A stretch of 64,000 bases of DNA from Candidatus Sabulitectum sp. (GTDB taxonomy: Bacteria > Fermentibacterota > Fermentibacteria > Fermentibacterales > JCC-6), in contig JAGLOJ010000012.1 of NCBI GenBank assembly GCA_023139045.1, positions 9,725 through 73,724 on the forward strand, read 5' to 3'. The notes beneath the pieces are model-generated. The model was given only the letters and a program-made list of their open reading frames with translations, ran no database searches and was not told where the DNA came from. Made by a program: the position numbers and the translations under genes. This document shows positions 1-17,032 of the stretch, one piece after another (position 1 is the first letter of the stretch; every line of letters starts with the position of its first letter).

Positions 1-1140
1 TTCAGCGAAGTTGACAGTGCAGATAATAAGCAAGACAAATACGAGATCTGGGGAATCAACTCATCTTGCAGTAATTTGAAGAAAAGCAGAAGAATAGATG
101 CGGGGGAATCGGGAACTTTACTGAGATTTGCAATCGGTTTTGCCTGTTTGCTTCCGGGAGAAACAAGCATAAATGCAGGCCACAGGAACAAAGAAAGACC
201 GGTTGAGCCGCTCATAAAAGCATTGGAAGACCTGGGAGCCAGAATCACAAAAGCTTCTGATGAGAATATTTATCCTGTTAGAATTGAAAAAGGACTGGTT
301 GGGGGCAGAACTGTCATCAGTGGCGATATCAGCAGCCAGTTCATCAGCTCTTTGCTGATTGTTTCGTCTTATTCAGAGAAGGATGTGGAGCTTCAAGTCA
401 TGAAGCCAATAGTTTCATCGGACTATATAGATCTGACAATAAGGGAAATGGAGAAATCCGGAGTTACAGCAAGAAGAATAAGGAAAGAGAAGTATGATTT
501 GTTCAGGATAGAAGCAGGGCAGAAATATCAGCCGCGGAACATAAGTATTCCCAAGGACTGGAGTTCGACAAACTACCTGCTGGCCGCGTCTGTAATATTG
601 AATAGAAAAATAAGGATTAATCAAATAGACACAAGGTCAAATCCTGGAGAATCGGAATTTGTCGCGATCCTTCAGAGAATGGGGTGCAGTATAAATACAG
701 AATCTGACAGTGTGTCAATTCTGAATTCAGAGATTCTGAATGGCGTTGAGGTTGATATGAAAGACAGTCCGGATTCTGTTTTGACCTTGATCGCAGTTGC
801 TTTGTTTGCCGGAGGAACCACTGCTGTTAAAAACATAGGCCACTTAATATACAAAGAGAGCAACAGAATAAAACAAGTGGAAGAAGAACTGAGGAAAATC
901 GGAGCAGACATAAAAACTACAAAAGATTCAATAACAATTGTCGGGCAGAAACGGTTACATGCAGCAACTACCGAATCCCATAATGATCACAGACTGGCGA
1001 TGTGTCTGGGTTTGATAAGATTGAGAAATAGAAATATGAAAATAGAGAATAGAGAATGTGTGCAGAAATCGTTTCCGGAATTCTGGGAGTATATCAGGAA
1101 GATTGATGAGGGTGGTGAGAAATGCCTGGAGATTCAATAG
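1..1140 (+). CDS. aroA: 3-phosphoshikimate 1-carboxyvinyltransferase (EPSP synthase), 5' partial; the open frame runs off the window start
   Basis: Frame 1 is open from nt 1. Motifs IDAGESGTLLRF and GDISSQFISSLL are typical of EPSPS. Followed 6 nt later by aroC. Confidence 0.85.
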   Translation, partial: FSEVDSADNKQDKYEIWGINSSCSNLKKSRRIDAGESGTLLRFAIGFACLLPGETSINAGHRNKERPVEPLIKALEDLGARITKASDENIYPVRIEKGLVGGRTVISGDISSQFISSLLIVSSYSEKDVELQVMKPIVSSDYIDLTIREMEKSGVTARRIRKEKYDLFRIEAGQKYQPRNISIPKDWSSTNYLLAASVILNRKIRINQIDTRSNPGESEFVAILQRMGCSINTESDSVSILNSEILNGVEVDMKDSPDSVLTLIAVALFAGGTTAVKNIGHLIYKESNRIKQVEEELRKIGADIKTTKDSITIVGQKRLHAATTESHNDHRLAMCLGLIRLRNRNMKIENRECVQKSFPEFWEYIRKIDEGGEKCLEIQ

Positions 1141-1145
1141 GAAAA

Positions 1146-2210
1146 ATGTTTAAAATCAGCGTATGGGGAGAATCACACGGTCCATCAATTGGTGTTGTGG
1201 TAGAGGGGTGTCCACCGGATATTGAATTGGATTTGAATAAAATTCGAGAAGAACTGAGTAGAAGGAAACCCGGGAAAAACAAATTTGTAAGCGCCAGGAA
1301 AGAAGAGGATCGGTTTGAAATTCTATCCGGGTTGTTCAATGGAAAAACTACCGGAACCCCAATAAGTGTTGTGATTAAAAACGAGGGTTTAAAAAAAGAG
1401 AATTATGAGGAACTGGCGAAGATATTCAGACCGGCTCATGCTGACTTTACATATCACGCAAAATACGGAGTAAGAGACTATTACGGGGGTGGAAGAAGCT
1501 CAGCAAGATTAACCGCACCAGTTGTTGCTGCCGGTGCAATTGCCAGACAGATATTGAGCAGGGAACTGGGAATAGAAATAACGGCCTATGTAAAAAAAAT
1601 AGGTGGAATTGAATCAAATATCAGCTACGATAAGGTACAGCAATCAGATTTGTCTGAGAGTCTTATCAGTTTCCCGGAGAAGGATAGAGAAGAAGAAATC
1701 TTGAAATTGCTTGAGAAATTAAGGGAAGAGGGAAATTCTGTCGGGGGTATTGTAGAGTGTGTTGTGAAAAATGTGCCGGCTGGTTTTGGAGAGCCGCTCT
1801 TTGACAAGCTGGATGCTGATCTGGCCAAAGCGATGGTTGGGCTGAATGCTGTTAAAGGGTTTGAAACAGGTAACGGGTTCAGCTGTGTCGAATTAAGCGG
1901 AAAAGAAAATAATGATGAGTTTACCATGGAAAATGGAAAAATGGTAACCAGGACTAATCGCTCCGGGGGAATACTTGGGGGAATATCCAACGGGATGCCG
2001 ATAGTCTTCCGGGTTGCATTTAAGGCGACACCAAGTATTTCTCAAAAGCAGAACACTGTTGATATTGATGGAAAGGAAAAGGAAATAGAGATAAAGGGCG
2101 ATCATGATGTCTGTGTAGCTATTCGCGCAGTGCCAGTTGTTGAAGCTTTATCCGCAATTGTTATTTGTGATCATTATTTGAGATACAGGGGGCAGTGTGG
2201 AATAAAATGA
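1146..2210 (+). CDS. aroC: chorismate synthase
   Basis: The N-terminus MFKISVWGESHGPSIGVVVEGCPP is the canonical chorismate synthase start. ATG at 1146 lies just after the aroA stop; the ORF track's 1122 start is probably too early. Confidence 0.9.
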   Translation: MFKISVWGESHGPSIGVVVEGCPPDIELDLNKIREELSRRKPGKNKFVSARKEEDRFEILSGLFNGKTTGTPISVVIKNEGLKKENYEELAKIFRPAHADFTYHAKYGVRDYYGGGRSSARLTAPVVAAGAIARQILSRELGIEITAYVKKIGGIESNISYDKVQQSDLSESLISFPEKDREEEILKLLEKLREEGNSVGGIVECVVKNVPAGFGEPLFDKLDADLAKAMVGLNAVKGFETGNGFSCVELSGKENNDEFTMENGKMVTRTNRSGGILGGISNGMPIVFRVAFKATPSISQKQNTVDIDGKEKEIEIKGDHDVCVAIRAVPVVEALSAIVICDHYLRYRGQCGIK

Positions 2211-2455
2211 ATCAAATAAATAAGTTGAGGGAAGAAATTGATAAAGTGGATAGTGAAATAGTAAAACAATTGAATAAAAGAATCGAATTGGTCCTGGAAA
2301 TTAAAGAATGCAAGAAGAAGAGTAATCTTCCGATTGAAGATTGTGCCAGAGAGGAAGAAATTATTTCCAATCTGGAATTAGGTGAATCGGATGAAAAATT
2401 TGTTAGAGATATTTATCAAGTGATTTTCAGGTTTTCTAAATCAAGACAAAGATAG
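2195..2455 (+). CDS. chorismate mutase (AroQ class II)
   Basis: Small helical protein, MNQINKLREEIDKVDSEIVKQLNKRIELVLEIKECK, resembles AroQ. It overlaps the aroC end; the real start may be ATG 2207. Confidence 0.75.
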   Translation: MWNKMNQINKLREEIDKVDSEIVKQLNKRIELVLEIKECKKKSNLPIEDCAREEEIISNLELGESDEKFVRDIYQVIFRFSKSRQR

Positions 2456-2565
2456 ACTTTTCCAATCTGTATGAAGACCACCCCAGCGATGTTGATGAAA
2501 ACCGGCTGATACTGATCTCCGGCCCTTTCAAACGTTTCGCTCATGGCTTTCCAGAGGCAGATAAC

Positions 2566-2603
2566 CGGCATCCGTGCGCGATGCCGTGCATGCAGAATTT
2601 TTC
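2566..2603 (+). terminator. hairpin (GGCATC-loop-GATGCC, 7 bp with flanks) about 110 nt after the chorismate mutase stop, with an A/T stretch a few nt downstream; possible operon terminator
   Basis: Inverted repeat seen at 2566-2586; the T-run at 2597-2602 is not immediately adjacent to the stem, so this is weak. Confidence 0.25.
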
Positions 2604-3378
2604 GCGAACAGAGGGGAGATGGGATGGAGCAAATGGGAACTCTTTGATCCCTGTGTCTTGACAGCTGTAATTTTGTTTAATCTTTCGATATACCGAAAGG
2701 ATGCAACATGAAACAACAAATTGTCTTCTAAGACAGAAGGATGTGTTGGGATTTAAGTAGAAATGGGATAAGACACATCAATCTGGTGGATTTTCTTATG
2801 AAATCAGAGTGAAGATGATCAAGAACCAGGCTGTTTGTAATGTCCCATGACCGGAATTGACTGCGCTGGAACGTATATTTGATGTGTAGCCAAGTAGTTA
2901 CATGACGATGACAGGTTCCGCCATTGTTATCTGAATACAGAGGTGATAATTCCTTTATCGACTGAAATTACAGTTGTTTCAGTTGCTCTCGTCAAAATCG
3001 CTCAAGACCATCTTACAAAACCATGCTGACTTTACAGTTTTCATCTTCAAGCGGGAGCAGCGGGTTGCATCTTTCTGGTGAGTATCAACTCTTGATGGGG
3101 AATGGTTCCCGCGGGGCAGACAGCAAAACTGTTGTGGCTGCAGGAACCGTCTGCTTCTATGGCACTTCGTTTTTCATACATGTTTTCTCTTTATGGCCCG
3201 AAGAAATAATGGGATTCAAGATAATACTGATGATTGACCCGATGGTTCACTATTGGATACCCTTGAAAGAAAAACGGTGAATGGGTGATGGCCCACATTC
3301 AGGAGTATGCGGTCGGATAGTTCATCTATTGACATGTGAGATGATATGTCTGATCATCAGACATAAAGGGGGAAGATC

Positions 3379-5181
3379 ATGTACAGAATATTCCTTTTGC
3401 TTATACTCTTCAGTTCGTTCATTGCTTCTTTTGCAGATTCAGTAGTTCAGACCGACTGGTCAGCTGGTCCGGGTGCGTTCGGTCCTGAATCTGTGTGGGA
3501 AAATTCTTTCGGCAGTTGTCAGTCCTGTGACTGGTTTTCTGACCCCGGCTCTCTGAAACTGGGTGCTGTGAGAGTTGATACCTTATTCGTTGTCTCAGAA
3601 GTACCAGGAACTGGGCCATTCTGTGTTGTCGACTTCGATCTGGACGGCGACATGGATATTCTTTCGATTAGTCTTGCAGCTCAGACCGTACACTGGTTGG
3701 AGAATCTGGATGGTTGCGGTACGTCCTGGGCAGATCATCAGATTGAGGAATGTGAGCGGGGTTATTGGGATTTTTCAGCTATTTCAGCTGCGGACTTCGA
3801 CATGAATGGAGAGATGGATATTGTCCTGGGCACTCAGATGAATGTTGTTGTTTATTACCAGTTAGGTTCGGTATTCTGGGGCATTCAAGTCTGCTCAGAA
3901 GGTTGGGTTTATCAACTGGCCTCCAACGACGCCGATGGTGATGGTGACACAGATATTTACATGATCAGCGAACACAGCTGGTACGGTTTGTTTTCATTCA
4001 TACTGAATGGATATCCTTCCGCGAGTTGGCAGCTTAATGAGATAGAGTACATTCAGAGCGACTTTGCACTTGGTGACATAGATGGTGACGGTGATCTGGA
4101 TATGCCAACGGCTCGATACTGGGCCGGCGGAGTAAAGTGGTACGATTACAGTGCCGGATACTTTATTATCGAGGGAACTGGAGCCTGGTCTATTGCGACT
4201 GCTGATTTCGATATTGATGGTGATATGGATGTTGTGGTTGATTACTGCTCAAGGCTGGAATGGTATGAGAATGCAGATGGTATCGGACAGGAATGGATAG
4301 TAAGAGGGTTCAAAAACAATCCCGCTGCTCTATATTATCCAGACATTGCAGCAGGTGATTTTGATTTTGATGGTGATGCCGATGTAACCAGACGAGCCAG
4401 TGGCTGGCTGCAGATTTACTGGAATGAGGATTATCAAGGCTCCGAGTGGTCTTATCTGAATTCGGGCATATCTGCTATCGGAACAGGTGATGTCTGTATG
4501 GCTGATATTGATCAGGATGGTATTGATGATGTAGTTGCCAGCTGGTCAACCACCGGTCTGCTTGTATGGTGGAAGACGGGGCAGAGAGCCCATTGCGGTG
4601 AACTCACATCTGCAGTTCTGCTTCTGCCATCCGATCCGGAGTGGGAAAGTATCTTCTGGACCTGCAATCAACCTCCTGAAACCAGCATCTCATTTCTTGT
4701 TCGTTCATCGGATGATCCTTCGGATATGGGTGAGTGGTCGGATACCATTGCAGTGTCTGGCACCAGCCTTGCCGGGGTGCTTTCAGATTGTGACAACTAT
4801 TTGCAGTACAGAGTTATTCTGAGTTCTTCCGATGTGCAGGCGACCCCTGAGCTTCAGGAGGTTATTTTCAACTACAACAGTCTTGGTATTGAAAATGATC
4901 CGGTTGTTGTTCTTTCATCGGGGGTTGTGTCAAATCCAGTATTTGGGTCTGCAGTTATCAGGTTTGAATTATCTGTCCAAGCTTCAGTTGTAATTGCAGT
5001 TTTCGATCTGTCCGGTCGTCTGGTCAGTAGGTCTTTATCATCAGAGTACTCTGTCGGGTCTCATGATGTTCTGCTTGGGGATTTTCCGCCTGGAATCTAC
5101 TTCTGTACCGTTGCTGCTGGAAATTTAACTACCTCACAGCGCTTTGCAGTGGTGGAAAAGGGGCAGAGTCTCGGCGTCTGA
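3379..5181 (+). CDS. secreted FG-GAP/VCBS-repeat beta-propeller protein with C-terminal T9SS (Por) sorting domain
   Basis: N-terminal signal peptide. Repeated DxDxDGDxD calcium-binding loops (DFDLDGDMDIL, DADGDGDTDIY, DIDGDGDLDM, DFDIDGDMDVV, DFDFDGDADV). C-terminal ~80 aa (VFDLSGRLV...GIYFCTV...) matches the T9SS type-A CTD pattern. Confidence 0.8.
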   Translation: MYRIFLLLILFSSFIASFADSVVQTDWSAGPGAFGPESVWENSFGSCQSCDWFSDPGSLKLGAVRVDTLFVVSEVPGTGPFCVVDFDLDGDMDILSISLAAQTVHWLENLDGCGTSWADHQIEECERGYWDFSAISAADFDMNGEMDIVLGTQMNVVVYYQLGSVFWGIQVCSEGWVYQLASNDADGDGDTDIYMISEHSWYGLFSFILNGYPSASWQLNEIEYIQSDFALGDIDGDGDLDMPTARYWAGGVKWYDYSAGYFIIEGTGAWSIATADFDIDGDMDVVVDYCSRLEWYENADGIGQEWIVRGFKNNPAALYYPDIAAGDFDFDGDADVTRRASGWLQIYWNEDYQGSEWSYLNSGISAIGTGDVCMADIDQDGIDDVVASWSTTGLLVWWKTGQRAHCGELTSAVLLLPSDPEWESIFWTCNQPPETSISFLVRSSDDPSDMGEWSDTIAVSGTSLAGVLSDCDNYLQYRVILSSSDVQATPELQEVIFNYNSLGIENDPVVVLSSGVVSNPVFGSAVIRFELSVQASVVIAVFDLSGRLVSRSLSSEYSVGSHDVLLGDFPPGIYFCTVAAGNLTTSQRFAVVEKGQSLGV

Positions 5182-5184
5182 CCG

Positions 5185-5877
5185 CTATTGGAAGAGGGCT
5201 TTGATGCCGCCGAAGGTAACCCTTGTCAGGGCTGTGTTGTAGTCATCTACACTGAAGTTGTCAATGTAGAACATTGGCTCTGCGTCATCGTAACCGCATA
5301 CAACTCCTGCCAGGCCCGTATCCAGGTTGAATATGCTGTCCATGACGTTGGAACTCACTGAGCCGTTGACTGACAGCTTGAGCTCTACCGGGTTCGTTCC
5401 TGTAACCTCGAAGGAGACAGTGTACCAGGTATTCTCATTCAAAGGATAGAAGAAGTCGTTTGCCAGGATGTCATACTTTCCGTTCTCGTCTACATGAGCT
5501 ATGACAGTGGCACCTGCCGGGGGGTAAGTGGAGAAAATACCAGCCATGTAACATTCACCTGTGGAGCTGTTCACTCTGCTAAGGAGGCCGGCGACTGCTT
5601 CCGATCCGGTGAACTTGATGTCAGCGCTGACTGCTCCGTCCGACCAGATTGCGGAACCCATACATATGTAAACTGCAGAACTGTCGCTGTTCCATTCAGT
5701 CTCAACGATGTTGTTACCACCATCATCCGCTACGATCAGGTTGCCGGCGGGAAAAGGACGTAGCCAGTATGCCGAACTGTTCAAGTCATCACCCGGTGAG
5801 TAGGACTCAAAATTGTCGGAGAAGTTCAGGGCAATAAGGATGGTGGGCAGAATGCAAAGGAAAATGACTGTTTTCAC
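5185..5877 (-). CDS. secreted hypothetical protein, concanavalin/LamG-like beta-sandwich (lectin-like)
   Basis: Signal peptide MKTVIFLCILPTILIAL, beta-rich composition, conserved W/G/Y pattern. Convergent with the FG-GAP gene; stops are 3 nt apart. Confidence 0.55.
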   Translation of the reverse strand: MKTVIFLCILPTILIALNFSDNFESYSPGDDLNSSAYWLRPFPAGNLIVADDGGNNIVETEWNSDSSAVYICMGSAIWSDGAVSADIKFTGSEAVAGLLSRVNSSTGECYMAGIFSTYPPAGATVIAHVDENGKYDILANDFFYPLNENTWYTVSFEVTGTNPVELKLSVNGSVSSNVMDSIFNLDTGLAGVVCGYDDAEPMFYIDNFSVDDYNTALTRVTFGGIKALFQ

Positions 5878-6215
5878 GATGGATATCCCTTCTCGGAATT
5901 GTTATAAACTGCTACCGCACAATATCTGTATTTCAGGGGGGTGTCAAGTCGGACAGACCTCCCATCATCTCTGTTGTATTGGTTTCATTACTGTTAGACA
6001 AGAAAAATTAAGTAATAATAATTATCACATGGAGGTGAAAAATGCGCCAACTGGTATGTGTATTCAATCTGTTATCTGCATTAGCAAACACTCATACGAT
6101 AGATGCCAGATAACATGCTCCAAGAGAGAACATAACCGGCATTGTTCTCGGTGAGCGTGTCTGCGCCCCTGATTCACTGGATTGTGCGATTTATGGTGTT
6201 TATTGGACGGGGGAG

Positions 6216-6892
6216 TTGCTTGAGATAGTTGTTTTGCCTTCTTTGCCCAATACTCCAGTTGGATTGGTAATTGCCAGTTGTATCTTCTATCTTGCAGAAA
6301 ACGAAACTGTAATAGTTCATTCCATTGGCTCTGACGGCAATCTGCTGGGAAGCTGGGATTTTTCCAACAGTGGTATTCACAGCATCTCCGGAATAGCTAC
6401 AGATGTTTCTCTACTTCGCAGTACCTGCTGATTCCGGATTCAGCAGACAGATCGATTTACAGAGCAAAAATGCCCCTCGGGTGCGAACCTGTTCAGTATC
6501 TGTTCACAATTGAAGATGAAATTGAAGTGCACGATATCGCATGGGGTTGCGTCGTGTTTCCTGTTGCCTGCAGTTATGAAGAATCTCCCATTCAAATACG
6601 GGGAGCGTTGAAGAGGGATGATACGGCACTGTAATCTCAGTGAGTTTCAGCATTTGCTCGAATCCGGTGCATACGGGTGCTGATGTATATCTTTTCTGTG
6701 GACCTTGCCTTGGATGGCTTTGTTGCTCTTCAGCTGTATGATATCAGCGGCAGGCTTATTCAGTTGGAAACAACTGGTATTCTGGCACCGGACCTCATGA
6801 AATCTCACCGGGGAGTTTTTCTCCCGGTATCTACTTTTTCGTATGACCTGTGGAGAGTTCAGCAGAATATCAAATCTCATTTCCGCTCATGA
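6216..6892 (+). pseudogene. decayed T9SS-cargo gene remnant (C-terminal sorting-domain fragments spread over three reading frames)
   Basis: ORF fragments 6216-6431 and 6677-6892 lie in different frames. LQLYDISGRLIQLE... and, after a shift, ...SPGIYFF are hallmark T9SS CTD motifs. A protein-like segment in a third frame sits between them. Confidence 0.5.
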
Positions 6893-7122
6893 AGCTCCGC
6901 ACTCATTGCTCTCATTGCTGTGGTGGAGAATATAAATTCAACGGGGAATCCGAAGTACTCGCTTATTCTGAAGGCAAGATCCAGGCTTGGGTTGTAGTCC
7001 TGTCTTTCAAGATAGCCCACTGTCTGGAAATTGATTCCGATCTCTTCTGCCAGTTGTTTTCTGGAGATACCTTTTTCCACTCTGAGATATTTTATTCTGT
7101 TGTACAGTTTTCTGGCTTTCAT
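6877..7122 (-). CDS. XRE-family helix-turn-helix transcriptional regulator
   Basis: 81 aa; LRVEKGISRKQLAEEIGINFQTVGYLERQDYNPSLDLAFRISEYFGFPVEFIF is a classic Cro/C1-type HTH. Its start overlaps the upstream membrane-protein gene by 4 nt. Confidence 0.8.
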   Translation of the reverse strand: MKARKLYNRIKYLRVEKGISRKQLAEEIGINFQTVGYLERQDYNPSLDLAFRISEYFGFPVEFIFSTTAMRAMSAELHERK

Positions 7123-7556
7123 TCGGTATCCTCCGGAATGCCCTTTTTCCAGGCGATCATGGTGCCGGGCAGTGTATGCGAGAGGTAGATCATGCTAGCC
7201 ACAAGGGGCATGGAGATGGTGTACTGAGGGCAGATATTCATGCGGCTTATAAGTGACAGAGCAAGCATAATCACAAGGCAGATAACGGCGAACCAGCCAT
7301 AGGATTCACTGAGAGCCCAGTGTGTAAGAGCAAGTTCCCGCTCATCAAGGTCTTTTGATTTGGTGTGGGTCAGTTTCCATATCCCTGACTTTTTGTGAAG
7401 GGGAATGAATGTAAGAGCCACAACGACCAGGCTGGTGATACCGATGACATCGTAGATGTTCGACGCAGCTCTGCCTCTGTAGACAAAGTAGAAGGCGATA
7501 TTCATGAAAATAAGAGCCGCATAGTTAACCACTGCCAGAGTTTTCAGATTCTTCAT
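7119..7556 (-). CDS. small integral membrane protein (DUF2178-like) co-transcribed with the XRE regulator
   Basis: 145 aa, 3-4 predicted TM helices. Pairing of an XRE regulator with such a membrane protein is a recurrent two-gene module. Confidence 0.6.
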   Translation of the reverse strand: MKNLKTLAVVNYAALIFMNIAFYFVYRGRAASNIYDVIGITSLVVVALTFIPLHKKSGIWKLTHTKSKDLDERELALTHWALSESYGWFAVICLVIMLALSLISRMNICPQYTISMPLVASMIYLSHTLPGTMIAWKKGIPEDTE

Positions 7557-7655
7557 AATTACACTCCTTGCGTATGAGAATTACCAAATATTGTAAATAT
7601 ACGCAATACGTTATAGAAATACAATAGAATCCGGTTTGCTGTGTTTTCGGTATTA

Positions 7656-8207
7656 TCATTCCTGATCAATAAGGTGCGTGAGATACCAGGTGTCAGTGCT
7701 GTCCGGTCTGCAGACCATGGTGAATTGACCTGTTTCCACGGCTCCTGAATCAGGATAGGAGTAGTACATTTTCATCCGATAATTTCTGGGGAATGCTATA
7801 GATTCGCTTGTAGAATCCGCTGGCCAGGGGTAATACCACAATCCCTCAAGGGTCAGTTCAATGGCTTCACAGCTTGAAAAGAGTATCTGTGCATTGGTCA
7901 TCTCAAGATCGTAGCCCCAGGTGCTGTCAATGGTTCCGTCGCCGTTGTAGTCGCCCCAGTCTTCCTCCTTGAGAAGGTGCAGAAACTCTGAATCCAGTGT
8001 GGCTGCCAGAAGGTTTGCGTCTCTGGTGTTGTAGGCGTACTTGTAGTTTTCAATGGCTTTCCAGCCTTCGTTAACCGGGTTATAGGGAAGTACCGGTGTA
8101 ACTATACCTGTTGCATTACTACCGCATGCCGCCAGGATCAGGGACAGTGTGATGATTATCGTTAATACTCTTTTCATCATTCCTCCAGCTTGGTGACTTG
8201 AATCCAT
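7656..8207 (-). CDS. lipoprotein, hypothetical
   Basis: Signal peptide with lipobox LILAAC. GGAGGA sits immediately upstream of the tandem ATGs (MMKRV, 8180/8177), which may be the true start. Confidence 0.6.
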   Translation of the reverse strand: MDSSHQAGGMMKRVLTIIITLSLILAACGSNATGIVTPVLPYNPVNEGWKAIENYKYAYNTRDANLLAATLDSEFLHLLKEEDWGDYNGDGTIDSTWGYDLEMTNAQILFSSCEAIELTLEGLWYYPWPADSTSESIAFPRNYRMKMYYSYPDSGAVETGQFTMVCRPDSTDTWYLTHLIDQE

Positions 8208-8655
8208 TGTTCCTTCTTAAATGCCGAATCAGGATCACACTTGAGACAATAGTGATTACAATAGCTGGAGTTCCCGCTTCCATGCCGAAAGCACCTCCGG
8301 TGAGCCAGGCTGGCCCTTCAAATGCTGCTTTGAAGAGGCTCCGGGTGTCTGTACCGGAGACCGCGATGTCAAAAATTCCACCCATGGTGAAGTTCCATGC
8401 GAAGTGGAGAGCTGAAATCACCCAGAGATTTCTGGTGGCCATGTAGACAAGGGTCATGAGTATGCCGAATTCAAGGCCTACTGCAACACTTGACCAGAGG
8501 GTTGCATTGGGATTGGTGGCGTGAGTAAGGCCGCCTTCTACGGCAACAACCAGCAGGGCGATAAGACTGCCTGCCCACTTCTCAACCAGCCTGAAGATTA
8601 TTCCCCTGGTGATCAGCTCTTCAATAAAACCGATCATTATCATGAAAAAAAGTAC
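8119..8655 (-). CDS. CPBP-family (CAAX/Abi) intramembrane metalloprotease, catalytic C-terminal part; out of frame with the preceding N-terminal part
   Basis: Motifs FIEELITRGIIF (EExxxR) and HFAWNF (HxxxN/D) define CPBP. The protein-like sequence begins exactly at MIMIG (nt 8643-8657). Confidence 0.6.
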   Translation of the reverse strand, partial: VLFFMIMIGFIEELITRGIIFRLVEKWAGSLIALLVVAVEGGLTHATNPNATLWSSVAVGLEFGILMTLVYMATRNLWVISALHFAWNFTMGGIFDIAVSGTDTRSLFKAAFEGPAWLTGGAFGMEAGTPAIVITIVSSVILIRHLRRNNGFKSPSWRNDEKSINDNHHTVPDPGGMR

Positions 8656-9017
8656 TTGATTACATCCGCAGATGGTTGAAATCCGACGATGCGGTAGTTG
8701 CCTGCTATGGCCAGGAAACCAACTTGAAGCAGGATGAGTCCGGAACCAATTGTTATTCCGAGGAGAACCTTTCTGAACCAGTGGCAAGTTGCGTACTCCC
8801 ACAGGGAGGAGTGCTCGAACCTCCTGAGATACAAGCGGTAGAAGTATACGGTAAGGAGGATGAAAAATGAGACCTGGATTGCTCTGCCTGGTATTGTGTT
8901 GAGAATTCCAGCGCCCTTGAGAAGAAGCTTTGCTCCTATTCCACCCAGGCATCCCATACCCACGAATACAAGTGCGATCATCATTAGAATCAGGGGGTGC
9001 AGGCGTTTCGTCCTCAC
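8640..9017 (-). CDS. N-terminal transmembrane portion of the same CPBP protease, separated from the catalytic half by a frameshift
   Basis: 125-aa polytopic membrane ORF ending ...KYFFS* inside a T7 run (A7 on the plus strand, 8644-8650). One extra T would fuse it in frame to MIMIGFIEEL... Confidence 0.5.
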   Translation of the reverse strand: MRTKRLHPLILMMIALVFVGMGCLGGIGAKLLLKGAGILNTIPGRAIQVSFFILLTVYFYRLYLRRFEHSSLWEYATCHWFRKVLLGITIGSGLILLQVGFLAIAGNYRIVGFQPSADVIKYFFS

Positions 9018-9152
9018 TCATTCTCCATATCGCTGAATGGAAAGGCTGATTTAACCGGGACTTTCTTTAAACGCTTCCTGTCACAATTCAATATACTACT
9101 GCTGTCTCAGTTATTCAAAAAAGCAGTCCCTCACAACAGAAAAGGGAGCTTG

Positions 9153-10010
9153 ATGGTTACTTCAGTGATTGATGTCGCGGATATCTACTTTTCATACGGC
9201 AAAGTGGAAGCAGTGAGAGGTATTTCCTTTTCTATGGCCAGGGGGGAGATTCTGGGATTCCTCGGCCCCAACGGAGCGGGTAAATCCACCACAATCAAGA
9301 TGCTCACCGGTCAGCTTTCTCCCAGATCCGGTTCAGTGTCTATTCTGGGAAAGAATCTTGTCAGAGATGACCCTGAGATTCAGGGCAGGATTGGTGTGTG
9401 CTTCGAAGAAAAGAATCTGTACGTGAACATGTCTGCCAGAGAGAATCTGAGGTTTTTCGCAGGGCTTTTCGGAATTCGGAATTTTAATCCCGATCTTCTG
9501 CTCAAAAGGGTATCACTGATTGACAGAGCCGATGACCGGGTCAGCAGCTATTCAAAGGGAATGCGTCAGAGGCTGATGGTGGCCAGATCTATTGTGAATG
9601 ATCCCGAAGTGCTGTTTCTTGATGAGCCTACCGAGGGTCTGGATCCGGTATCAAGCAAGTCAATCAGAGAGCTTATTCTTGAACAGGCTCGGAAGGGCAC
9701 GGCAGTTCTACTCACAACACACGATATGTGGGAGGCAGATGAGCTTTCCGACAGGGTCGTGTTTCTCTGCGAGGGCAGAATTCATGCAATGGACACACCT
9801 GACGAACTCAAAATGAAGTACGGGCACCGGACTGTCAGAGTGAAACTCCGTGATGGTGAGACAGTTCGTCGGGAAATCATCTCCCTTGATTCCCCGGATG
9901 CAGGGGAGAAACTGAAACAGATAGTTGAGAATGAGGGATTGATGACAATTCACACAGAAGAGGCAAGCCTTGAGGACATCTTCATAAAGATCACCGGCAG
10001 GGGTCTCTGA
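9153..10010 (+). CDS. ABC transporter ATP-binding protein (ABC-2/drug-exporter type)
   Basis: Walker A GPNGAGKST, signature YSKGMRQRL, Walker B LFLDEPTEGLD. AAGGGAG RBS precedes ATG 9153; the ORF track's 8997 start has a non-protein-like N-terminus. Confidence 0.85.
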   Translation: MVTSVIDVADIYFSYGKVEAVRGISFSMARGEILGFLGPNGAGKSTTIKMLTGQLSPRSGSVSILGKNLVRDDPEIQGRIGVCFEEKNLYVNMSARENLRFFAGLFGIRNFNPDLLLKRVSLIDRADDRVSSYSKGMRQRLMVARSIVNDPEVLFLDEPTEGLDPVSSKSIRELILEQARKGTAVLLTTHDMWEADELSDRVVFLCEGRIHAMDTPDELKMKYGHRTVRVKLRDGETVRREIISLDSPDAGEKLKQIVENEGLMTIHTEEASLEDIFIKITGRGL

Positions 10011-10012
10011 AA

Positions 10013-11083
10013 GTGAAGAGGAAGCTCAATCTCTTCAGAGTGTTTCTGATAGTAAAGAAGGATTTGCGGGAGTTTTCCCGTGACCGACTCTGGATGATCC
10101 TTTCTCCGCTGTCTCTGCTGATGTTCGTGGGTCTTCTCCGACTGCTTCCGGAGAATCCGGTTGATATAATCTCGGTTGGTGTGTTCCCATCCTCTTATTC
10201 TGTTTTTGCCGGAGATTCTGATTTTTCCGGCGCGGAGATCATCGGGTTTGAGAGCCGGGACGCCCTTTCTGTCGCGGTACTTGAGGGTGATGAGCTTCTG
10301 TTTGGCGTGGCTCTGGCTGAGTCAGGTTCATCAGTTGAGCTGTTCCTTTCTTCTTCCGTTACACCGGCGCAGAACAGGGCGGCAGCAAGTGCGGTTCGTG
10401 AGTTGTGTTATGTAATTCAGGCCATGCAATCCGGGGAGAATCCCACTGACGGTCTGCCGGTGCGGATTCCCGAGTTTCGAGAGATGTTTTCCGGTACCGG
10501 AAGAGTGTCTCTGAAGGATAAACTCAAACCGATGCTGTTCGTGATCATTCTGCTGGTTGAATCACTGGCTCTGGCCGGTCTTATCTCGGTGGAAATAGAA
10601 CACCGAACTGCTTCAGCTCTGCTTGTTACCTCCGCAACAACACGGGATCTGCTGCTGGCCAAGATTCTTACAGGTGTTCTGCTCGCAGTGACACAGGTTT
10701 TTCTGTTTCTTGCTTTTACAGGTATTTTCTCTTCAGGCTGGCTTCCCCTGGTAGTGACAGCATTGCTCGGAGCCTGGATGGCCTCATCTGTGGGGATGAT
10801 ATCAGGCGCCGCCGGACGGGATTTCATGGGTACCCTTTTTCTTGGAATGGTATTTGTTGTTCCCCTCATTATACCTGCATTTGCTCTGCTTTTCTCCGGG
10901 AGTCCCGGTGGACTGCTCAAACTGATCCCGTCATACGGACTTGTGATGTCGGTTTCTGATGTGATCGGGAAAGGAAGCGGTCTCGCTGATGTTGCTCCCT
11001 ACCTTTTTCAATTGCTTATCTGGAACAGCATTCTTGCCCTTATCGGGCTGTTTGTGCTGAAGAGGAAGGTGGAAGCACTGTGA
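10013..11083 (+). CDS. ABC-2 family transporter permease
   Basis: 356 aa with an N-terminal TM helix, a long periplasmic loop and 5 C-terminal TM helices, which is ABC-2 topology. It follows the ATPase by 2 nt. Confidence 0.75.
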   Translation: MKRKLNLFRVFLIVKKDLREFSRDRLWMILSPLSLLMFVGLLRLLPENPVDIISVGVFPSSYSVFAGDSDFSGAEIIGFESRDALSVAVLEGDELLFGVALAESGSSVELFLSSSVTPAQNRAAASAVRELCYVIQAMQSGENPTDGLPVRIPEFREMFSGTGRVSLKDKLKPMLFVIILLVESLALAGLISVEIEHRTASALLVTSATTRDLLLAKILTGVLLAVTQVFLFLAFTGIFSSGWLPLVVTALLGAWMASSVGMISGAAGRDFMGTLFLGMVFVVPLIIPAFALLFSGSPGGLLKLIPSYGLVMSVSDVIGKGSGLADVAPYLFQLLIWNSILALIGLFVLKRKVEAL

Positions 11084-12144
11084 GTTTTAACAGGGTACTG
11101 CTGCTGATGGGAAAAGATTTGAGGGCCTGTCCCCGATCTCCAGTTATCCTCTGGCTGCTGGTCATGCCTCTGGTGATTACTTTCTTTCTTCAAGTGGTGT
11201 TCGCCACCCTTTTTGAATCTGAACCGGTGCTGGGGATCAACTCTCCTTCCCGGTCGGTTATCCTCAGCAATCTTTCCTCTCTGGAGGGCCTTGAGGTAAT
11301 CTCCGCTGAGGAAACGGAGCTTCTTGAAATGCTTGATAACGGAGATGTGGATGCCGGTCTTTTTCTTTCTGATTCATTTGAAGATTCTGTACGGTCGGAT
11401 GGCAGGCCGGTGCTTCGATACTTCTCTTCCGCAAAGGGTTCACCGGCTAATTCCGCCGTTCTTCTTCTTCTTGTAATGGATGAACTGAGAACTCTCGAGA
11501 ATCGGCAGAACCTCTTTTCTGTTGCTGTGATCGCGCCTGACCGGGGAGACGAACTGCCCCTTTCAGAAAGAATGGTACCTTCGATGATTCTGGTGGTGAT
11601 GATAGTCAGCGGGATTTTTACACCGGCTTTCATGCTGGTGGAAGAGACGGAAAAAGGCACCCTTCTGGCAGTTCTTGCAACTCCTGTTGCTCTGGGCGAG
11701 GTTCTTCTGTCAAAAGCTCTGGTGGGCTTCTGCCTTGCGATGCCGATAACTCTTTTCACACTTGTACTCAATGGTGTTACAGGATTTGATCTGACTGCCC
11801 TTCTTGTCTGTTTCGCGGTGGGTACTGCGGTCTGCAACTGTATCGGGTTGATCTACGGTACACTGGCCAGGAATTCGAAATCTCTCTACACGATGGTGAA
11901 AAGTCTCAACATCATCCTGGCAGCACCGGTTATGTTCTATCTCTTTCCCGGCTGGCCATGCTGGGTGGCGAAGCTGTTCCCGACATACTGGTTCATGGAT
12001 CCTGTTTACAGAGTAACAATGCATAATGCCACTCTTCCGGATGTTCTTGGTGATCTGAGCGTTGCAGTGGTGACGGCGATTCTTCTGGCACTTGCCGCTG
12101 CTTCTCTGGGAAGGAGAATGCAGAACCGTCTGGCCGGAATGTAA
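11080..12144 (+). CDS. ABC-2 family transporter permease (second subunit)
   Basis: Same architecture as the preceding permease; 4-nt overlap. Confidence 0.75.
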   Translation: MSFNRVLLLMGKDLRACPRSPVILWLLVMPLVITFFLQVVFATLFESEPVLGINSPSRSVILSNLSSLEGLEVISAEETELLEMLDNGDVDAGLFLSDSFEDSVRSDGRPVLRYFSSAKGSPANSAVLLLLVMDELRTLENRQNLFSVAVIAPDRGDELPLSERMVPSMILVVMIVSGIFTPAFMLVEETEKGTLLAVLATPVALGEVLLSKALVGFCLAMPITLFTLVLNGVTGFDLTALLVCFAVGTAVCNCIGLIYGTLARNSKSLYTMVKSLNIILAAPVMFYLFPGWPCWVAKLFPTYWFMDPVYRVTMHNATLPDVLGDLSVAVVTAILLALAAASLGRRMQNRLAGM

Positions 12145-12145
12145 T

Positions 12146-12652
12146 TCAGTTGATGGAGACTGCTTCGCTCTGGATCCATCCCTGAATATCAAGATTTTCC
12201 GGACTGTCGCTCAAATCGACTTTGAACCAGGTTGCAGTTATGCCGAGGATGGCAGCGGCAGAATTGGCAGGAATGACTGCCAGTGGCGTTGAAGCAGTGT
12301 CCTGATCCGGGTACACCGGAGTATCCGTCTGCATCATTGCATAGGAAACATCCAGGACGGGTGCCCACACCACAGGAAGTGAATCTGCAGAGGCTGTGAT
12401 GCCGTCAGGTGCCAGCCATCTGTATCTGAAACTGCATGTGTTGGCGGCTTGCGCAACGCCGGGGTCGAAGCCAAACCACCCTGATGCTGTTTTTACTTCC
12501 AGTGTGACATTTTCGTCGGGCAGAAGCTGTGACCAGATTTCAGAACGGGAATCGGGTCTTGAGTAGATATTCAGTGTATCCTGCGGTGTGAATGTAATAG
12601 CGGCTGCTGTGGCTGCCATTGCTGAAACCATCCATATGTACTGCAGTCTCAT
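12146..12652 (-). CDS. secreted hypothetical protein, possibly tandem SH3b-like domains
   Basis: AAGGAGG RBS 6 nt upstream of ATG 12652. Signal peptide MRLQYIWMVSAMAATAAA. W/G-rich beta motifs (GWIQSEAV). Confidence 0.55.
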   Translation of the reverse strand: MRLQYIWMVSAMAATAAAITFTPQDTLNIYSRPDSRSEIWSQLLPDENVTLEVKTASGWFGFDPGVAQAANTCSFRYRWLAPDGITASADSLPVVWAPVLDVSYAMMQTDTPVYPDQDTASTPLAVIPANSAAAILGITATWFKVDLSDSPENLDIQGWIQSEAVSIN

Positions 12653-12892
12653 GAGAACCTCCTTTATTTTAAGTTCCGTGGTATGCAAGTAATGTAATTC
12701 ATATTTTCCGGGATGGCAAAGAAGCCTCCGACCTGAATATGGCAGAAATATCCTGATTTCGTCGGAATTGCAACTCGGCTTCTGTGGGAAAGTGTTTTCC
12801 GGAAAAGCCATGGGAATCTGCCTTTGACCTGAGCGGAAAAATTAGCGATTATTGCGGAAGATGAACCCATCCCTGGAGAGAAGGGGAGAGCA

Positions 12893-13510
12893 GTTGAGGG
12901 TTGCATTGGTGTATCCCAGGTACAGCATGAACCGTCACACGCTTTGTTTTTCTATGCTCTGGCGTATGTTGCAGTTGTAACGGTAGATGCAGGTCATGAT
13001 GTTGCTGTGGTTGATATGGGATATGGAAGGGGATGTTCTTTCAACTGTGTTTACTGCTACAGAATATTCGGCAGGAAAGTTGGACGAAGGTCACCGGAGT
13101 CAATTGTATTGTAGCGGAACTTGAGGAACTGGTAAGGCGTTTTAATATACAATATACTGGTTTTCCCGATGATCCGTTCACGCTGAGGGGGATTGTTTTG
13201 GAGATCTGTGCTTTGATGAGAGAGCCCACCCCCGGGATCAAGTGGCTCTGCCGCAGAAGGGTTAACACCCTCGACAGGGAGATGCTTGAGACGATGAAGG
13301 ATGTGACTGGATTTCCTACGGTATTGAGTAGGGTTGTGACATCATGCTGGACAGGATGAAACGGGGGGTAACAACCCGGCACTGCCTGAACACGCTGAAA
13401 CTTACTGAGTCTGTTGGAATACCTGCAGAAGGAAATTTTGTGACAGGTATGTCTGACGAGACCGGGCACAGGGAACTGTTGGAAGAAGCTATCTTTGGAG
13501 AAACCCCCTG
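12893..13510 (+). pseudogene. frameshifted, internally deleted paralog of the downstream B12-binding radical SAM gene
   Basis: Three frames carry colinear pieces: RVALVYPRY; ...VAVVDMGYGRGCSFNCVYC (CxxxCxxC); IFGRKVGRRSPESIV-AELEELVRRF...IKWLCRRRVNTLDREMLETM...; ...FVTGMSDETGHRELLEEAIF. Each aligns with the rSAM gene at 14910-16304. Confidence 0.55.
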
Positions 13511-13623
13511 ATAAGAATCCCGGCTCTTGTGTGTAAACACTTTAAACTGAGGGGCTTTGAAGGGCTGTTTAACGACTGTAGAACCTGCCTGGCATCCTTT
13601 TTTGGCGGGAGAAAGAACTGAAT

Positions 13624-14931
13624 ATGACCGTAAATTCTGTTTGTAATGTGAACAGGTACCTGGCACCTCTGCTTCCCCGGGCAATTCCCGTAATCTTTGC
13701 TGTGGTTCTTCTTCCCCGGATACTTCTATTCTTTTATCTTGGTGGAGAACTTCCGCAACCGGTGAGAGATCAGGCTTTGTACATTCATACAGCTGGCCAG
13801 ATCGCTACCGGTGAAGGTTTTTCATTCTCTGAGGATCTGGGGCTGATGAAGAATCTCAGGAATACAGATGATAGTCTTCAGCAGCATTGGACCGGAAGTG
13901 CAGGCTACATGTTCGGTCTTGCTCCTGTGGATACCCCGACTGCTGTGATGGAACCGGGTTATCCCGTGCTGCTTGCGTTGTTTTTCTCCCTGTTCGGTGC
14001 GGTAAGTGGATCGGTGTTTTCTCTCAACCTTCTTTTTGCTCTCGGGGGTGCTTTTGCTGTTAGAAAACTGGTCATGGATGTATGGGGAGCAGAGTCAGGT
14101 CTGATGGCAGCTGTTCTCTGGTCTCTGTATCCGCCTTATGTGTACTACACCGCCTATGCAATGACAGAAACTGCTCATTTTGCCCTGCTGATCATATCTT
14201 CCATGCTGGTTCTTTCCGCCGGCAGAGGAACCGGGAAGGGATTTACAGCCGGACTGACCACAGGTGTTTTCTTCCTGATTCGGGCCACCGCTTTGTTTCT
14301 TATTCCACTTCAACTTGCTTACCTCGCCTGGAGAAAGCAATGGAAAGCTCTGCTTTTTCTTTCTGCGGGATTTCTTGTTGCGGTGTCTCCCTGGGTTGTG
14401 CGAAACTGGATATCACTGGGCGAACCGGTGCTGATGCCAACAAAGGGGGCACTCAACATGTGGATGAGAAACAATCCTGAAGTACTTGCATTGGAGGGCA
14501 TCTTTGTACCCGCTGATATTCCAGTGAATAATCTTTCCATGCTGGAGTACCCATCCACCGATTCCATTCAGGGAGAGCTTGCAAGAAGCAGGGCACTGGG
14601 AATTTCAGCCAGAACCTATATCCTGAGTAATCCCCGGCTCATGGCCTGGCTTGCCTGGAATCGGGCAATCGCCTTTCTGGCTCCGGGAGGCAGCACCCTG
14701 GGTGCCCGGGGAATGCTTGCCGGTCTTCTCATTTATCCATTAATACTGTTCGGAGTGGTCGGTTTGTGGCGTAATCGATCTCATCCGGAAGCAGCATTCC
14801 TCTTTGCTCTCTTTGTTTTGTATCTTCTGGTTCACGCTATGGCGCACGGAGGGGTTCGGTATCGGTTGCCGGTAGATGCTGTATTTATCATCGGGGTTGC
14901 GCTGGGAACTTGCTGCAGGAAGGGGAAATAG
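13624..14931 (+). CDS. GT-C fold glycosyltransferase, family 39/83 (PMT/ArnT-like, polyprenyl-phosphate-sugar dependent)
   Basis: 435 aa, about 11 TM helices, with the N-terminal loop and YPPxxYY-type motifs of ArnT/PMT-family enzymes. Confidence 0.75.
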   Translation: MTVNSVCNVNRYLAPLLPRAIPVIFAVVLLPRILLFFYLGGELPQPVRDQALYIHTAGQIATGEGFSFSEDLGLMKNLRNTDDSLQQHWTGSAGYMFGLAPVDTPTAVMEPGYPVLLALFFSLFGAVSGSVFSLNLLFALGGAFAVRKLVMDVWGAESGLMAAVLWSLYPPYVYYTAYAMTETAHFALLIISSMLVLSAGRGTGKGFTAGLTTGVFFLIRATALFLIPLQLAYLAWRKQWKALLFLSAGFLVAVSPWVVRNWISLGEPVLMPTKGALNMWMRNNPEVLALEGIFVPADIPVNNLSMLEYPSTDSIQGELARSRALGISARTYILSNPRLMAWLAWNRAIAFLAPGGSTLGARGMLAGLLIYPLILFGVVGLWRNRSHPEAAFLFALFVLYLLVHAMAHGGVRYRLPVDAVFIIGVALGTCCRKGK

Positions 14932-16304
14932 TGAACAGGCTGAAACGAATTCTTTTCGTTTTTCCAGAGACCAGGTATCCGTCGGGGCAGCCGCCTCTGG
15001 GGATAGCCATGCTCTCTGCAGTAGCTTCACTGTGTGGTGCAGAGACTGTTCTCTGCGACATGTCCTTCCAGAAAAAGCCATTTGAGCATCTGAGTCATTT
15101 GCTGAAGGAATTCAAGCCGGACGCTGTTTCCATTACTGTGGTTACTCCCCAGATCAGAGCGACTCTTACTGCCTGCGAGGTTATCCGGGAACATGCTCCC
15201 GAGGCATACCTTATGATCGGTGGCCCGCATGCCACGGTGCTTCCGATAGAGACTCTTGAAACTTCAGGTGCAGATCTTGTTTATTCCGGAGAGGGCGAGA
15301 TAGCATTCAAACTGCTTGTTGAGGGAACAGACCCCGGGGAGATTCCCGGTGCCTGTTTTATGAAAGACGGGAAGGCGATTCTTGTTCCCGGCAAGTTGCT
15401 GGTGGAAAACCTGGATACTCTTCCTATGCCGGACAGAGACATTTTTGATATGAAAAAGTACTTCAGTACTTGGTATTCCATGGACAGAGTAGATCCCGGC
15501 TTGAAAGGCACCACGATTATGGGTACTCGTGGATGCCCTTACACCTGCACCTTCTGCCAGCCGACCCTCTCTGAGATATTTGGCAAAAAGACCCGCAAGC
15601 GTTCTCCGGAATCAGTAGTGAAGGAACTGAAACACCTTGTGGAGAAGTTTTCCATCAACGGTTTCATGTTTGAAGATTCCACCTTCATTGTTGACCATAA
15701 GTGGGTTACCGATATCTGTTCACTGATGAACAGCGAGGGTTTGAAGCTCAAGTGGTGCTGTAATGTCAGGGCCGATCTTCTTACGGAAGAGCTTCTTGAC
15801 ACCATGGCAGGTGCCGGTCTTTCCAAGGTAAATATGGGGGTTGAATCTGCCTCACAGAGAGTTCTCGACGACATATACAGAAAGGGAATCACAGTGGAGG
15901 GCGTAAGAAGAGCTCTCCGGATGTGCCTCTCCCGGGGAATTTTCGTTCAGGGTTACTTTATGCTCGGTGCGCCGGGAGAAACTGTTGAGGAAATGAAGCA
16001 GACAATTGACTTTGCCGCAAGAGAACCATTTGATGATGCTCTTTTCGATATTACCACACCATTCCCTCACACAGAGCTCTGGGAGATGTCAAAGGAATTA
16101 ATAAATGAAGATTACTCTGAATTCGATTGTTTCCACAAGAGTGTATACACTTTTGACGGAATTACTTCTGAGCAGATAGAAAAATTGAAGAGAAATGCCT
16201 TCTGGAAATTTTATGCCCACCCGGCCAGAATACTGAGGACAGTGCGCACGGTTCTGGGGCCCAGGAACTTTAAGCGAACCATGCTGAAGGTGAGGAGAGT
16301 ATGA
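14910..16304 (+). CDS. B12-binding domain radical SAM enzyme (HpnJ-like class B rSAM)
   Basis: N-terminal Rossmann-like B12-binding region (ILFVFPE..., EAYLMIGGPHAT) followed by GTRGCPYTCTFC (CxxxCxxC). Alternative start GTG 14932 sits right after the upstream stop with an AAGGGG RBS. Confidence 0.85.
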   Translation: MLQEGEIVNRLKRILFVFPETRYPSGQPPLGIAMLSAVASLCGAETVLCDMSFQKKPFEHLSHLLKEFKPDAVSITVVTPQIRATLTACEVIREHAPEAYLMIGGPHATVLPIETLETSGADLVYSGEGEIAFKLLVEGTDPGEIPGACFMKDGKAILVPGKLLVENLDTLPMPDRDIFDMKKYFSTWYSMDRVDPGLKGTTIMGTRGCPYTCTFCQPTLSEIFGKKTRKRSPESVVKELKHLVEKFSINGFMFEDSTFIVDHKWVTDICSLMNSEGLKLKWCCNVRADLLTEELLDTMAGAGLSKVNMGVESASQRVLDDIYRKGITVEGVRRALRMCLSRGIFVQGYFMLGAPGETVEEMKQTIDFAAREPFDDALFDITTPFPHTELWEMSKELINEDYSEFDCFHKSVYTFDGITSEQIEKLKRNAFWKFYAHPARILRTVRTVLGPRNFKRTMLKVRRV

Positions 16305-17032
16305 GAGAAATTACCGTTACAATTGATGATGGAGGTATGCACCCCGCGGTAAATGCTGCAATTCAGAAGTGTATTGATTCAGAGAATGTGAACAGAGTAA
16401 GCATAATGGCAACCGGCAGCAATTTTGCAGAAGCCAGTATGATGGCCATGATGAACGGTGTTCGTGTTGCAGCACATCTGGATTGCTGTCAGGGACCCTT
16501 TCTGTTGAAAGGGAGCGATTTTCCTGAGTCGTTTTCAGTCTGGCTTAAATCTGCAGATTCACTGGCGGATTCTGTTCAGAAAGAATGGTCGGCTCAGATA
16601 GAGATGATCCTCTCCACCGGAGGAGTTGTTACTGCCCTGGACAGTCATCGCCATCTGCACAACCTGCCGGCCTTGCAGAAAGTTATTATTTCTGTTGCAA
16701 AAGAATACGGTATAAGAACAGTAAGATCCGCAGTACTGCCGGACAAGCTTATGAGATTTCCTGCAGGACTCAAGTTGAACTCTCTGGGTTGTGAATTAAA
16801 GACCAACCTTGAGTCTGAAGGACTTGTAACAACTGATAGAATGCTGGGGTTCGGCCGGGCCGGGAAGATCAATCGGAAATATTTAAGCAAGTTCACTTCT
16901 CTGTGCAGCGATGGTACAACTGAAATTGTGATGCACCCTGCCACCGAAAATGTCTGGTCTTCTGGTCAACCTGGAGAGCTTGAGTTGATCACCTCTGAAT
17001 GGTTCGGTGACTGGTGCAGAGGAAAACGCTAG
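16301..17032 (+). CDS. YdjC-family carbohydrate deacetylase (ChbG/HpnK-like)
   Basis: ITVTIDDGGMHPAVNAAI N-terminus; the LDSHRHLHNLP motif matches the YdjC HLDSHxHxH signature. 4-nt overlap with the rSAM gene. Confidence 0.8.
   Translation: MREITVTIDDGGMHPAVNAAIQKCIDSENVNRVSIMATGSNFAEASMMAMMNGVRVAAHLDCCQGPFLLKGSDFPESFSVWLKSADSLADSVQKEWSAQIEMILSTGGVVTALDSHRHLHNLPALQKVIISVAKEYGIRTVRSAVLPDKLMRFPAGLKLNSLGCELKTNLESEGLVTTDRMLGFGRAGKINRKYLSKFTSLCSDGTTEIVMHPATENVWSSGQPGELELITSEWFGDWCRGKR

Follow-up and report, generated by a model that had tools for sequence, protein, structure and literature searches.

Results

Two reading frames at one locus

The window, i.e. the whole stretch of 64,000 nucleotides of Candidatus Sabulitectum DNA that was analysed, carries on its minus strand two open reading frames of 125 and 174 amino acids, which meet at a run of seven T residues on the coding strand. 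The features of this locus, together with the gene that follows it, are listed here.

9022..9026, minus strand: GGAGA, similar to a Shine-Dalgarno sequence and separated by 4 nt from the GTG start that follows, as read from the sequence
8640..9017, minus strand: N-terminal half of the CPBP gene in frame A, from the GTG start at 9017 to the premature stop TGA at 8642-8640, 125 aa
8645..8651, minus strand: T7 homopolymer (A7 on the plus strand), site of the one-base deficit
8119..8643, minus strand: C-terminal catalytic half in frame B, from the ATG at 8643-8641 to the TAG at 8121-8119, 174 aa
8610..8636, minus strand: predicted RNA hairpin with a stem of 11 bp, formed by the codons for IGFIEELI and beginning 8 nt downstream of the T run
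7656..8180, minus strand: lipoprotein-like gene beginning MKRVLTIIITLSLILAACGS..., the next gene of the cassette, downstream of CPBP

The N-terminal half ends with ...SADVIKYFFS* and aligns with residues 1-124 of the orthologues, and when the N-termini are aligned its GTG at 9017 occupies the position of the orthologue start. The C-terminal frame opens with MIMIGFIEELITRG... and is shifted by -1 relative to the N-terminal one. At the junction the coding strand reads AAG TAC TTT TTT TCA TGA, where the ATG of the C-terminal half (8643-8641) overlaps the stop codon of the N-terminal half (TGA, 8642-8640) as ATGA. Comparison of the repaired protein with the window by tblastn gave two abutting HSPs meeting at the T run, the first covering residues 1-124 (frame -3, 9017-8646) and the second residues 121-299 (frame -2, 8658-8122). 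The N-terminal frame resembles the orthologues as far as KYFF, the C-terminal frame from (F)MIMIGF onwards, and the missing base could thus be placed within TTTTTTTC, after the second Phe codon and before the ATG. An earlier reading of this DNA, made from the letters only, had described an N-terminal transmembrane region at 8640-9017 ending with ...KYFFS* in a T7 run, and this is what is present in the sequence; the homopolymer it named is real as well, its position being 8645-8651 instead of the 8644-8650 given there, one base off.

In GenBank the two halves are listed separately. The N-terminal one is MCK5130814.1, 'hypothetical protein KAR40_01515', from a Candidatus Sabulitectum MAG on a 93.6-kb contig, and the C-terminal one is MCK5130813.1, which is started at the next Met (8637), has 172 aa and is named CPBP family intramembrane metalloprotease. 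Frame B is also free of stops over the 125 codons of the N-terminal part and can be entered at an ATG (9021) lying just 4 nt before the true GTG, so gene callers yield a chimeric 300-aa product (P0121; 8119-9021, minus strand, MSEDETPAPP...) with a nonsense, non-hydrophobic N-terminus, and this product has entered protein sets derived from NCBI, ENA and Logan. The openness of frame B here is a mild coincidence, since the same alternative frame contains 2-9 stops in six orthologues.

The repaired protein is a CPBP family member

Insertion of one T results in a 299-aa protein that matches Pfam PF02517 (Rce1-like) with 56.6 bits and an E-value of 3e-15, the cut-off of this model (gathering score) being 22.4 bits. 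The C-terminal half alone reaches 53.3 bits (E 3.5e-14) with the same model. The N-terminal half alone has no Pfam match of its own and recognizes the orthologues in tblastn with an E-value of about 1e-36. As each half is recognized separately at these levels, the match of the split gene to the CPBP family is not due to chance. The repaired protein had no match among the NCBIfam models and none in the sequence search of the PDB, and tblastn revealed no second CPBP-like sequence in the 64-kb window.

The residues expected of the family are present. The EExxxR motif (E133, E134, R138), located on the predicted helix 117-149, and the HxxxN motif (H205-F-A-W-N209) are invariant in an alignment of 19 sequences, and so is H166, the histidine expected of family motif 2 (FxxxH), which stands here in GGLTH with the consensus Phe replaced. 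All of these (E133, E134, R138, H166, H205 and N209) sit in the C-terminal half, in agreement with the proposal that a catalytic half with EExxxR and HxxxN continues in the -1 frame. The further suggestion that one added T restores a CPBP protein of about 300 aa was borne out by the 299-aa length, the PF02517 match and an orthologue alignment running gapless over the junction.

The AF2 model of the repaired protein (pLDDT 87.8, pTM 0.84) is a membrane bundle of eight long helices. The break at residue 125/126 falls inside the helix 117-149 of this model, 8 residues before E133; according to the model the N-terminal half comprises the predicted transmembrane helices 1-3 and the first 9 residues of helix 4, and the C-terminal half, from M126, is left without the first third of the catalytic helix. 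SpdC (6u0o_A) was the sole specific fold match in the PDB, with a probability of 0.97, a TM-score of 0.47/0.55 and a weak E-value of 0.29. The protein thus resembles the CPBP/Rce1-like proteins, e.g. S. aureus SpdC/LyrA, in its PF02517 score, in the EExxxR and HxxxN motifs and the motif-2 His, and in its predicted 8-helix membrane fold. It differs from them in its reading frame, which is broken here at residue 125/126, and in a conserved C-terminal extension of the subfamily, SG...LTGGxFGxEA, at about residues 221-248. The locus is a disrupted member of the CPBP family, not an intact one. A defence-system reading of the name 'Abi' was rejected, as PADLOC had no match for the CPBP protein or for its two unnamed neighbours.

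The relatives are contiguous and belong to a conserved cassette

A homologue search with the whole repaired protein returned 357 homologues. Among the matches listed, the closest are contiguous proteins of 278-306 aa from Sabulitectum/Fermentibacteraceae with 55-79% identity, several of them named as Candidatus Sabulitectum MAG proteins, and the best full-length identity is 79%. Relatives are encoded at 16 loci in GTDB species genomes, with best identities of 76-78%, and at 8 loci in JGI metagenomes, where the best identity in the protein scan was 75%. The 19-sequence alignment is gapless across the junction, with KYFFF-MIMIGFIEEL here against KYILLMILIGFIEEL. The orthologue P0009 reads KYFFFMILIGF at this point, and together with the gapless alignment this upholds the core of the sequence-only reading, namely that a single CPBP gene is split by a homopolymer frameshift.

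P0009 is the sole homologue with KYFFF. It lies at a contig end (L005 / L001, JAOZUR010000012.1) and its upstream neighbours are different (AIRC, Ni_insertion and a hydrolase), and it may represent a rearranged locus or a paralogue.

The CPBP gene is part of a four-gene cassette (6877-9017, minus strand), which continues with a lipoprotein-like gene (173/174 aa), a 145-aa membrane protein and an 81-aa XRE HTH protein. This cassette is kept at L002, L003, L004, L006, L007, L008 and L010; CPBP reads through in every full-length copy, and L010 holds the 3' part only, at a contig end. Among the homologues listed, only one further match of high identity is short, P0027 (174 aa); it is marked as partial and comes from this same truncated L010. 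Neither the lipoprotein-like nor the 145-aa protein has a Pfam, NCBIfam or PADLOC match. Among the closer relatives the membrane protein (82-86%) and the HTH protein (78-81%) are better conserved than CPBP.

Every orthologue was found to be contiguous, the check that had been proposed for distinguishing a broken gene from two genuine ones, and the split is absent from all of them. The orthologue DNA has T5 at most at the junction site. The T run is peculiar to this lineage, and so is the split. Among the 120 homologues listed there was no further naturally split CPBP.

The T7 run in independent assemblies

The contig derives from run SRR13892605, deep-sea cold-seep sediment read as 2x150 on an Illumina HiSeq X Ten and assembled with MEGAHIT (PMC9357000). 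The Logan contig, an independent assembly of the same run, is 100% identical to positions 1-19021 of the window, T7 included. The chimeric P0121 cannot exist without T7, and records of it come from an NCBI contig of 93.6 kb, an ENA contig of 94.1 kb and a Logan contig of 41.9 kb.

There are 15 homopolymers of at least 7 bases in the window, 14 of them A/T (14.3 +/- 4.1 A/T runs expected from a first-order Markov model), and a frame break coincides with this T7 only; the remaining 14, four of which are 8 long, lie within uninterrupted ORFs. A survey of the window for further frameshifts, as a gauge of assembly error, found none. The ten ORFs taken from suspicious overlapping pairs turned out to be separate genes or to have no Pfam match linking the pair, their domains being unrelated (dUTPase, LptE, RimP, NusA, GT2, sugar transferase). 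With no other frame break at the 14 homopolymers and with unrelated overlapping ORFs, it can be concluded that the assembly is not error-ridden.

Search for an intact allele of the same species

The predicted T8 and T6 proteins, each considered with three alternative starts, were absent from a 15-billion-protein collection searched by exact look-up, and the same look-up of the fragments found only the 125-aa N-terminal half from NCBI. This NCBI fragment (P0122) was also the only result of a homologue search with the N-terminal half alone. Two flanking proteins were met by exact look-up only on the same three contigs, and a junction DNA pattern allowing T6-T9 had no match in the JGI metagenomes. 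The word-indexed search for full-length homologues missed P0122 in spite of its presence in the database, so negatives from that search are not absolute. As the collections searched held no genome or contig of the same species, we infer the T8 ancestor and have not observed it.

Discussion

A probable recent loss of one base

We consider it probable that the locus represents one gene of a CPBP (Rce1-like, 'Abi/CAAX') glutamic intramembrane endopeptidase, in which the dominant Candidatus Sabulitectum genotype has suffered a real loss of one base. The lineage would have gained a run of Phe codons, Y-F-F-F-M, presumably encoded as TAC TTT TTT TTC ATG and thus containing T8, at a site where the relatives read Y-I-L-L-M or Y-I-F-L-M; an ancestor with e.g. 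TTTTTT-CTC at the run rather than T8 (TTC) would be an alternative. Replication slippage, or an equivalent single-base deletion, may then have shortened the run to T7. Ribosomes that start at the normal GTG, with its ribosome-binding site, now terminate two codons past the run, and the full-length enzyme would no longer be encoded, leaving a young pseudogene or at least a strongly down-expressed gene. Residual activity would need rare slippage of RNA polymerase or of the ribosome on U7, or re-initiation at the ATG that overlaps the stop.

No second lesion was found in the CPBP gene, and its divergence from the orthologues is within the range of its neighbour genes. The lack of a second lesion is equally expected if the true sequence is intact. 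The case is similar to other homopolymer-frameshift pseudogenes in that a single base has changed in a mononucleotide run in the 5' part of an envelope-protein gene. The event is an ordinary one, a recent gene inactivation. Of the three options that the sequence-only reading had offered, fresh inactivation gives the best fit, a sequencing error is unlikely and an on/off switch is unsupported.

Could the consensus have dropped one T?

According to a first alternative, the gene of the organism is T8 and intact, and one T was lost in the consensus only. The break is located exactly in a homopolymer, where Illumina indel errors are concentrated (PMC3334598), the CPBP gene has no other defect, and all contigs with the locus appear to stem from one sample; if the assemblies are, as is probable, from one sample, a systematic read-level artefact would recur in each of them. 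Against this it must be considered that the Illumina HiSeq X platform is not homopolymer-prone, that indels are very rare in Illumina reads overall, with a ceiling of about 2% in homopolymers (PMC3334598), a rate by far insufficient to overturn a consensus at ordinary coverage, that the second assembler arrived at the identical sequence and the same frame-shifted ORF is present on the NCBI and ENA contigs, which differ in length, and that none of the 14 other runs of at least 7 bases breaks an ORF. The platform, the agreement of independent assemblies on T7 and the absence of any other homopolymer-broken gene make a sequencing error unlikely.

Could the run be a switch?

The T7/T8 tract might be a slipped-strand contingency switch of the protease, and possibly of the downstream cassette, with T7 as the majority OFF state. 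Phase-variable contingency loci contain poly-A/T or poly-G/C tracts, e.g. in Campylobacter, Helicobacter and Neisseria, and envelope proteins, to which the CPBP proteins belong, are often phase-variable. Such loci classically have their frameshift in a mononucleotide tract around the 5' third of the gene, as is the case here, one slippage step would restore the frame, and a one-base change in the run of an envelope-protein gene switches the frame here just as it does there. The differences are nevertheless considerable. The tract measures only 7-8 nt, which is near the minimum for hypermutable tracts; it occurs in this lineage alone, the orthologues having T5 at most and being in frame wherever the site is readable; and A/T runs of at least 7 are about as frequent in the window as expected (14 against 14.3 +/- 4.1). 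Furthermore, a T8 or T6 allele is recorded nowhere in the collections searched, and both assemblers passed straight through the site. We therefore regard a contingency switch as improbable.

Could the split gene still work?

It could also be supposed that the split locus has remained functional, either through slippage on U7 or through separate halves that are produced by re-initiation at ATGA and assemble in the membrane. An additional U introduced by transcriptional slippage, or a -1 slippage of the ribosome on U7, would in both cases yield ...KYFFFMIM.... All catalytic residues are in the C-terminal half, and the 4-nt ATGA overlap is also found between many coupled genes in the window. The hairpin that begins 8 nt 3' of the run has 11 bp and is missing in five orthologues (z -1.1 to +1.75 at the equivalent place); in a stretch of 54 nt it folds with -15.5 kcal/mol and a z of -2.68, and 5 of 200 shuffled sequences fold as well. 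In its 101-nt context the z is only -0.62, which is not significant, and the hairpin is probably coincidental.

Slippage on A/T runs can rescue frameshifted genes, at about 10% on the A8 of apoB, and IS elements use runs of 8A-9A for slippage (Baranov et al. 2005, PMC1088944). In a large share of bacterial genomes, runs prone to slippage are visibly selected against once they reach about 9 nt (PMC1088944). With 7 bases the present run is short of the about 9 (sometimes 8) expected of a gene expressed by transcriptional slippage, and the yield is expected to be small. A frameshifted gene rescued by transcriptional slippage is reported for Citrobacter tssM (PMC4256274). The likeness of such cases (PMC1088944; PMC4256274) to our locus is that one nucleotide added in an A/T run would restore the ORF, and the difference is that the known runs have 8-9 bases or more and are often conserved, the run here being of 7 and unconserved.

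Several other features do not favour a functional split gene. The zero-frame C UUU UUU / U UUU UCA is not a canonical X XXY YYZ heptamer, the internal ATG has no upstream ribosome-binding site, and the break is predicted to truncate the catalytic helix 8 residues before E133. The 120 homologues listed include no other naturally split CPBP, and nothing of the arrangement is conserved in the relatives; since the relatives need no recoding, no recoding signal is kept in them. A programmed -1 frameshift is unlikely, as no full-length orthologue has the run and each of them consists of one in-frame ORF. On balance a functional split is hardly to be expected. Some expression is conceivable in view of the ATGA overlap and of the hairpin that follows the run after 8 nt, and we take the slippage and re-initiation features as coincidences that permit it in traces at most. 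Least probable of all is that T7/T8 is a working switch or a leaky recoding site, aided by the hairpin and the ATGA overlap, which tunes the CPBP protease.

Consequences for annotation and for the cassette

The practical meaning of the probable base loss lies first of all in annotation. Prodigal-type calls have placed the chimeric P0121 in protein databases and GenBank lists the halves as two genes; the locus should rather be recorded as a conserved CPBP gene that a frameshift has turned into a pseudogene. Biologically, one cold-seep Sabulitectum population would be losing, or strongly reducing, a membrane protease that is kept by all sampled relatives, by routine gene decay at a mutational hot spot of its own making. 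If, on the other hand, the switch or the recoding were true, polarity would also tune the lipoprotein, membrane-protein and XRE genes that follow CPBP, and in the case of a switch a contingency locus would be seen being born in a slow-growing, uncultured subsurface bacterium of the Fermentibacterota.

The variable 3' tail of the CPBP ORF and the start of the lipoprotein-like gene share about 60 nt (8119-8180, minus strand), and the latter gene could be subject to polar effects of the CPBP frameshift. The coordinates at L002 imply a similar overlap of CPBP and lipoprotein genes, and several orthologue tails also end with ...MR, consistent with an overlap.

The 64-kb window has no tRNA genes, and no Rfam family matched it at the gathering threshold. 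On the other side of the CPBP gene, and divergent from it, stand a DrrA-like ABC ATPase and two ABC-2 permeases (9153-12144, plus strand); this divergent arrangement is not seen within 4 kb upstream at L002 or L003, and is present at L004 as well.
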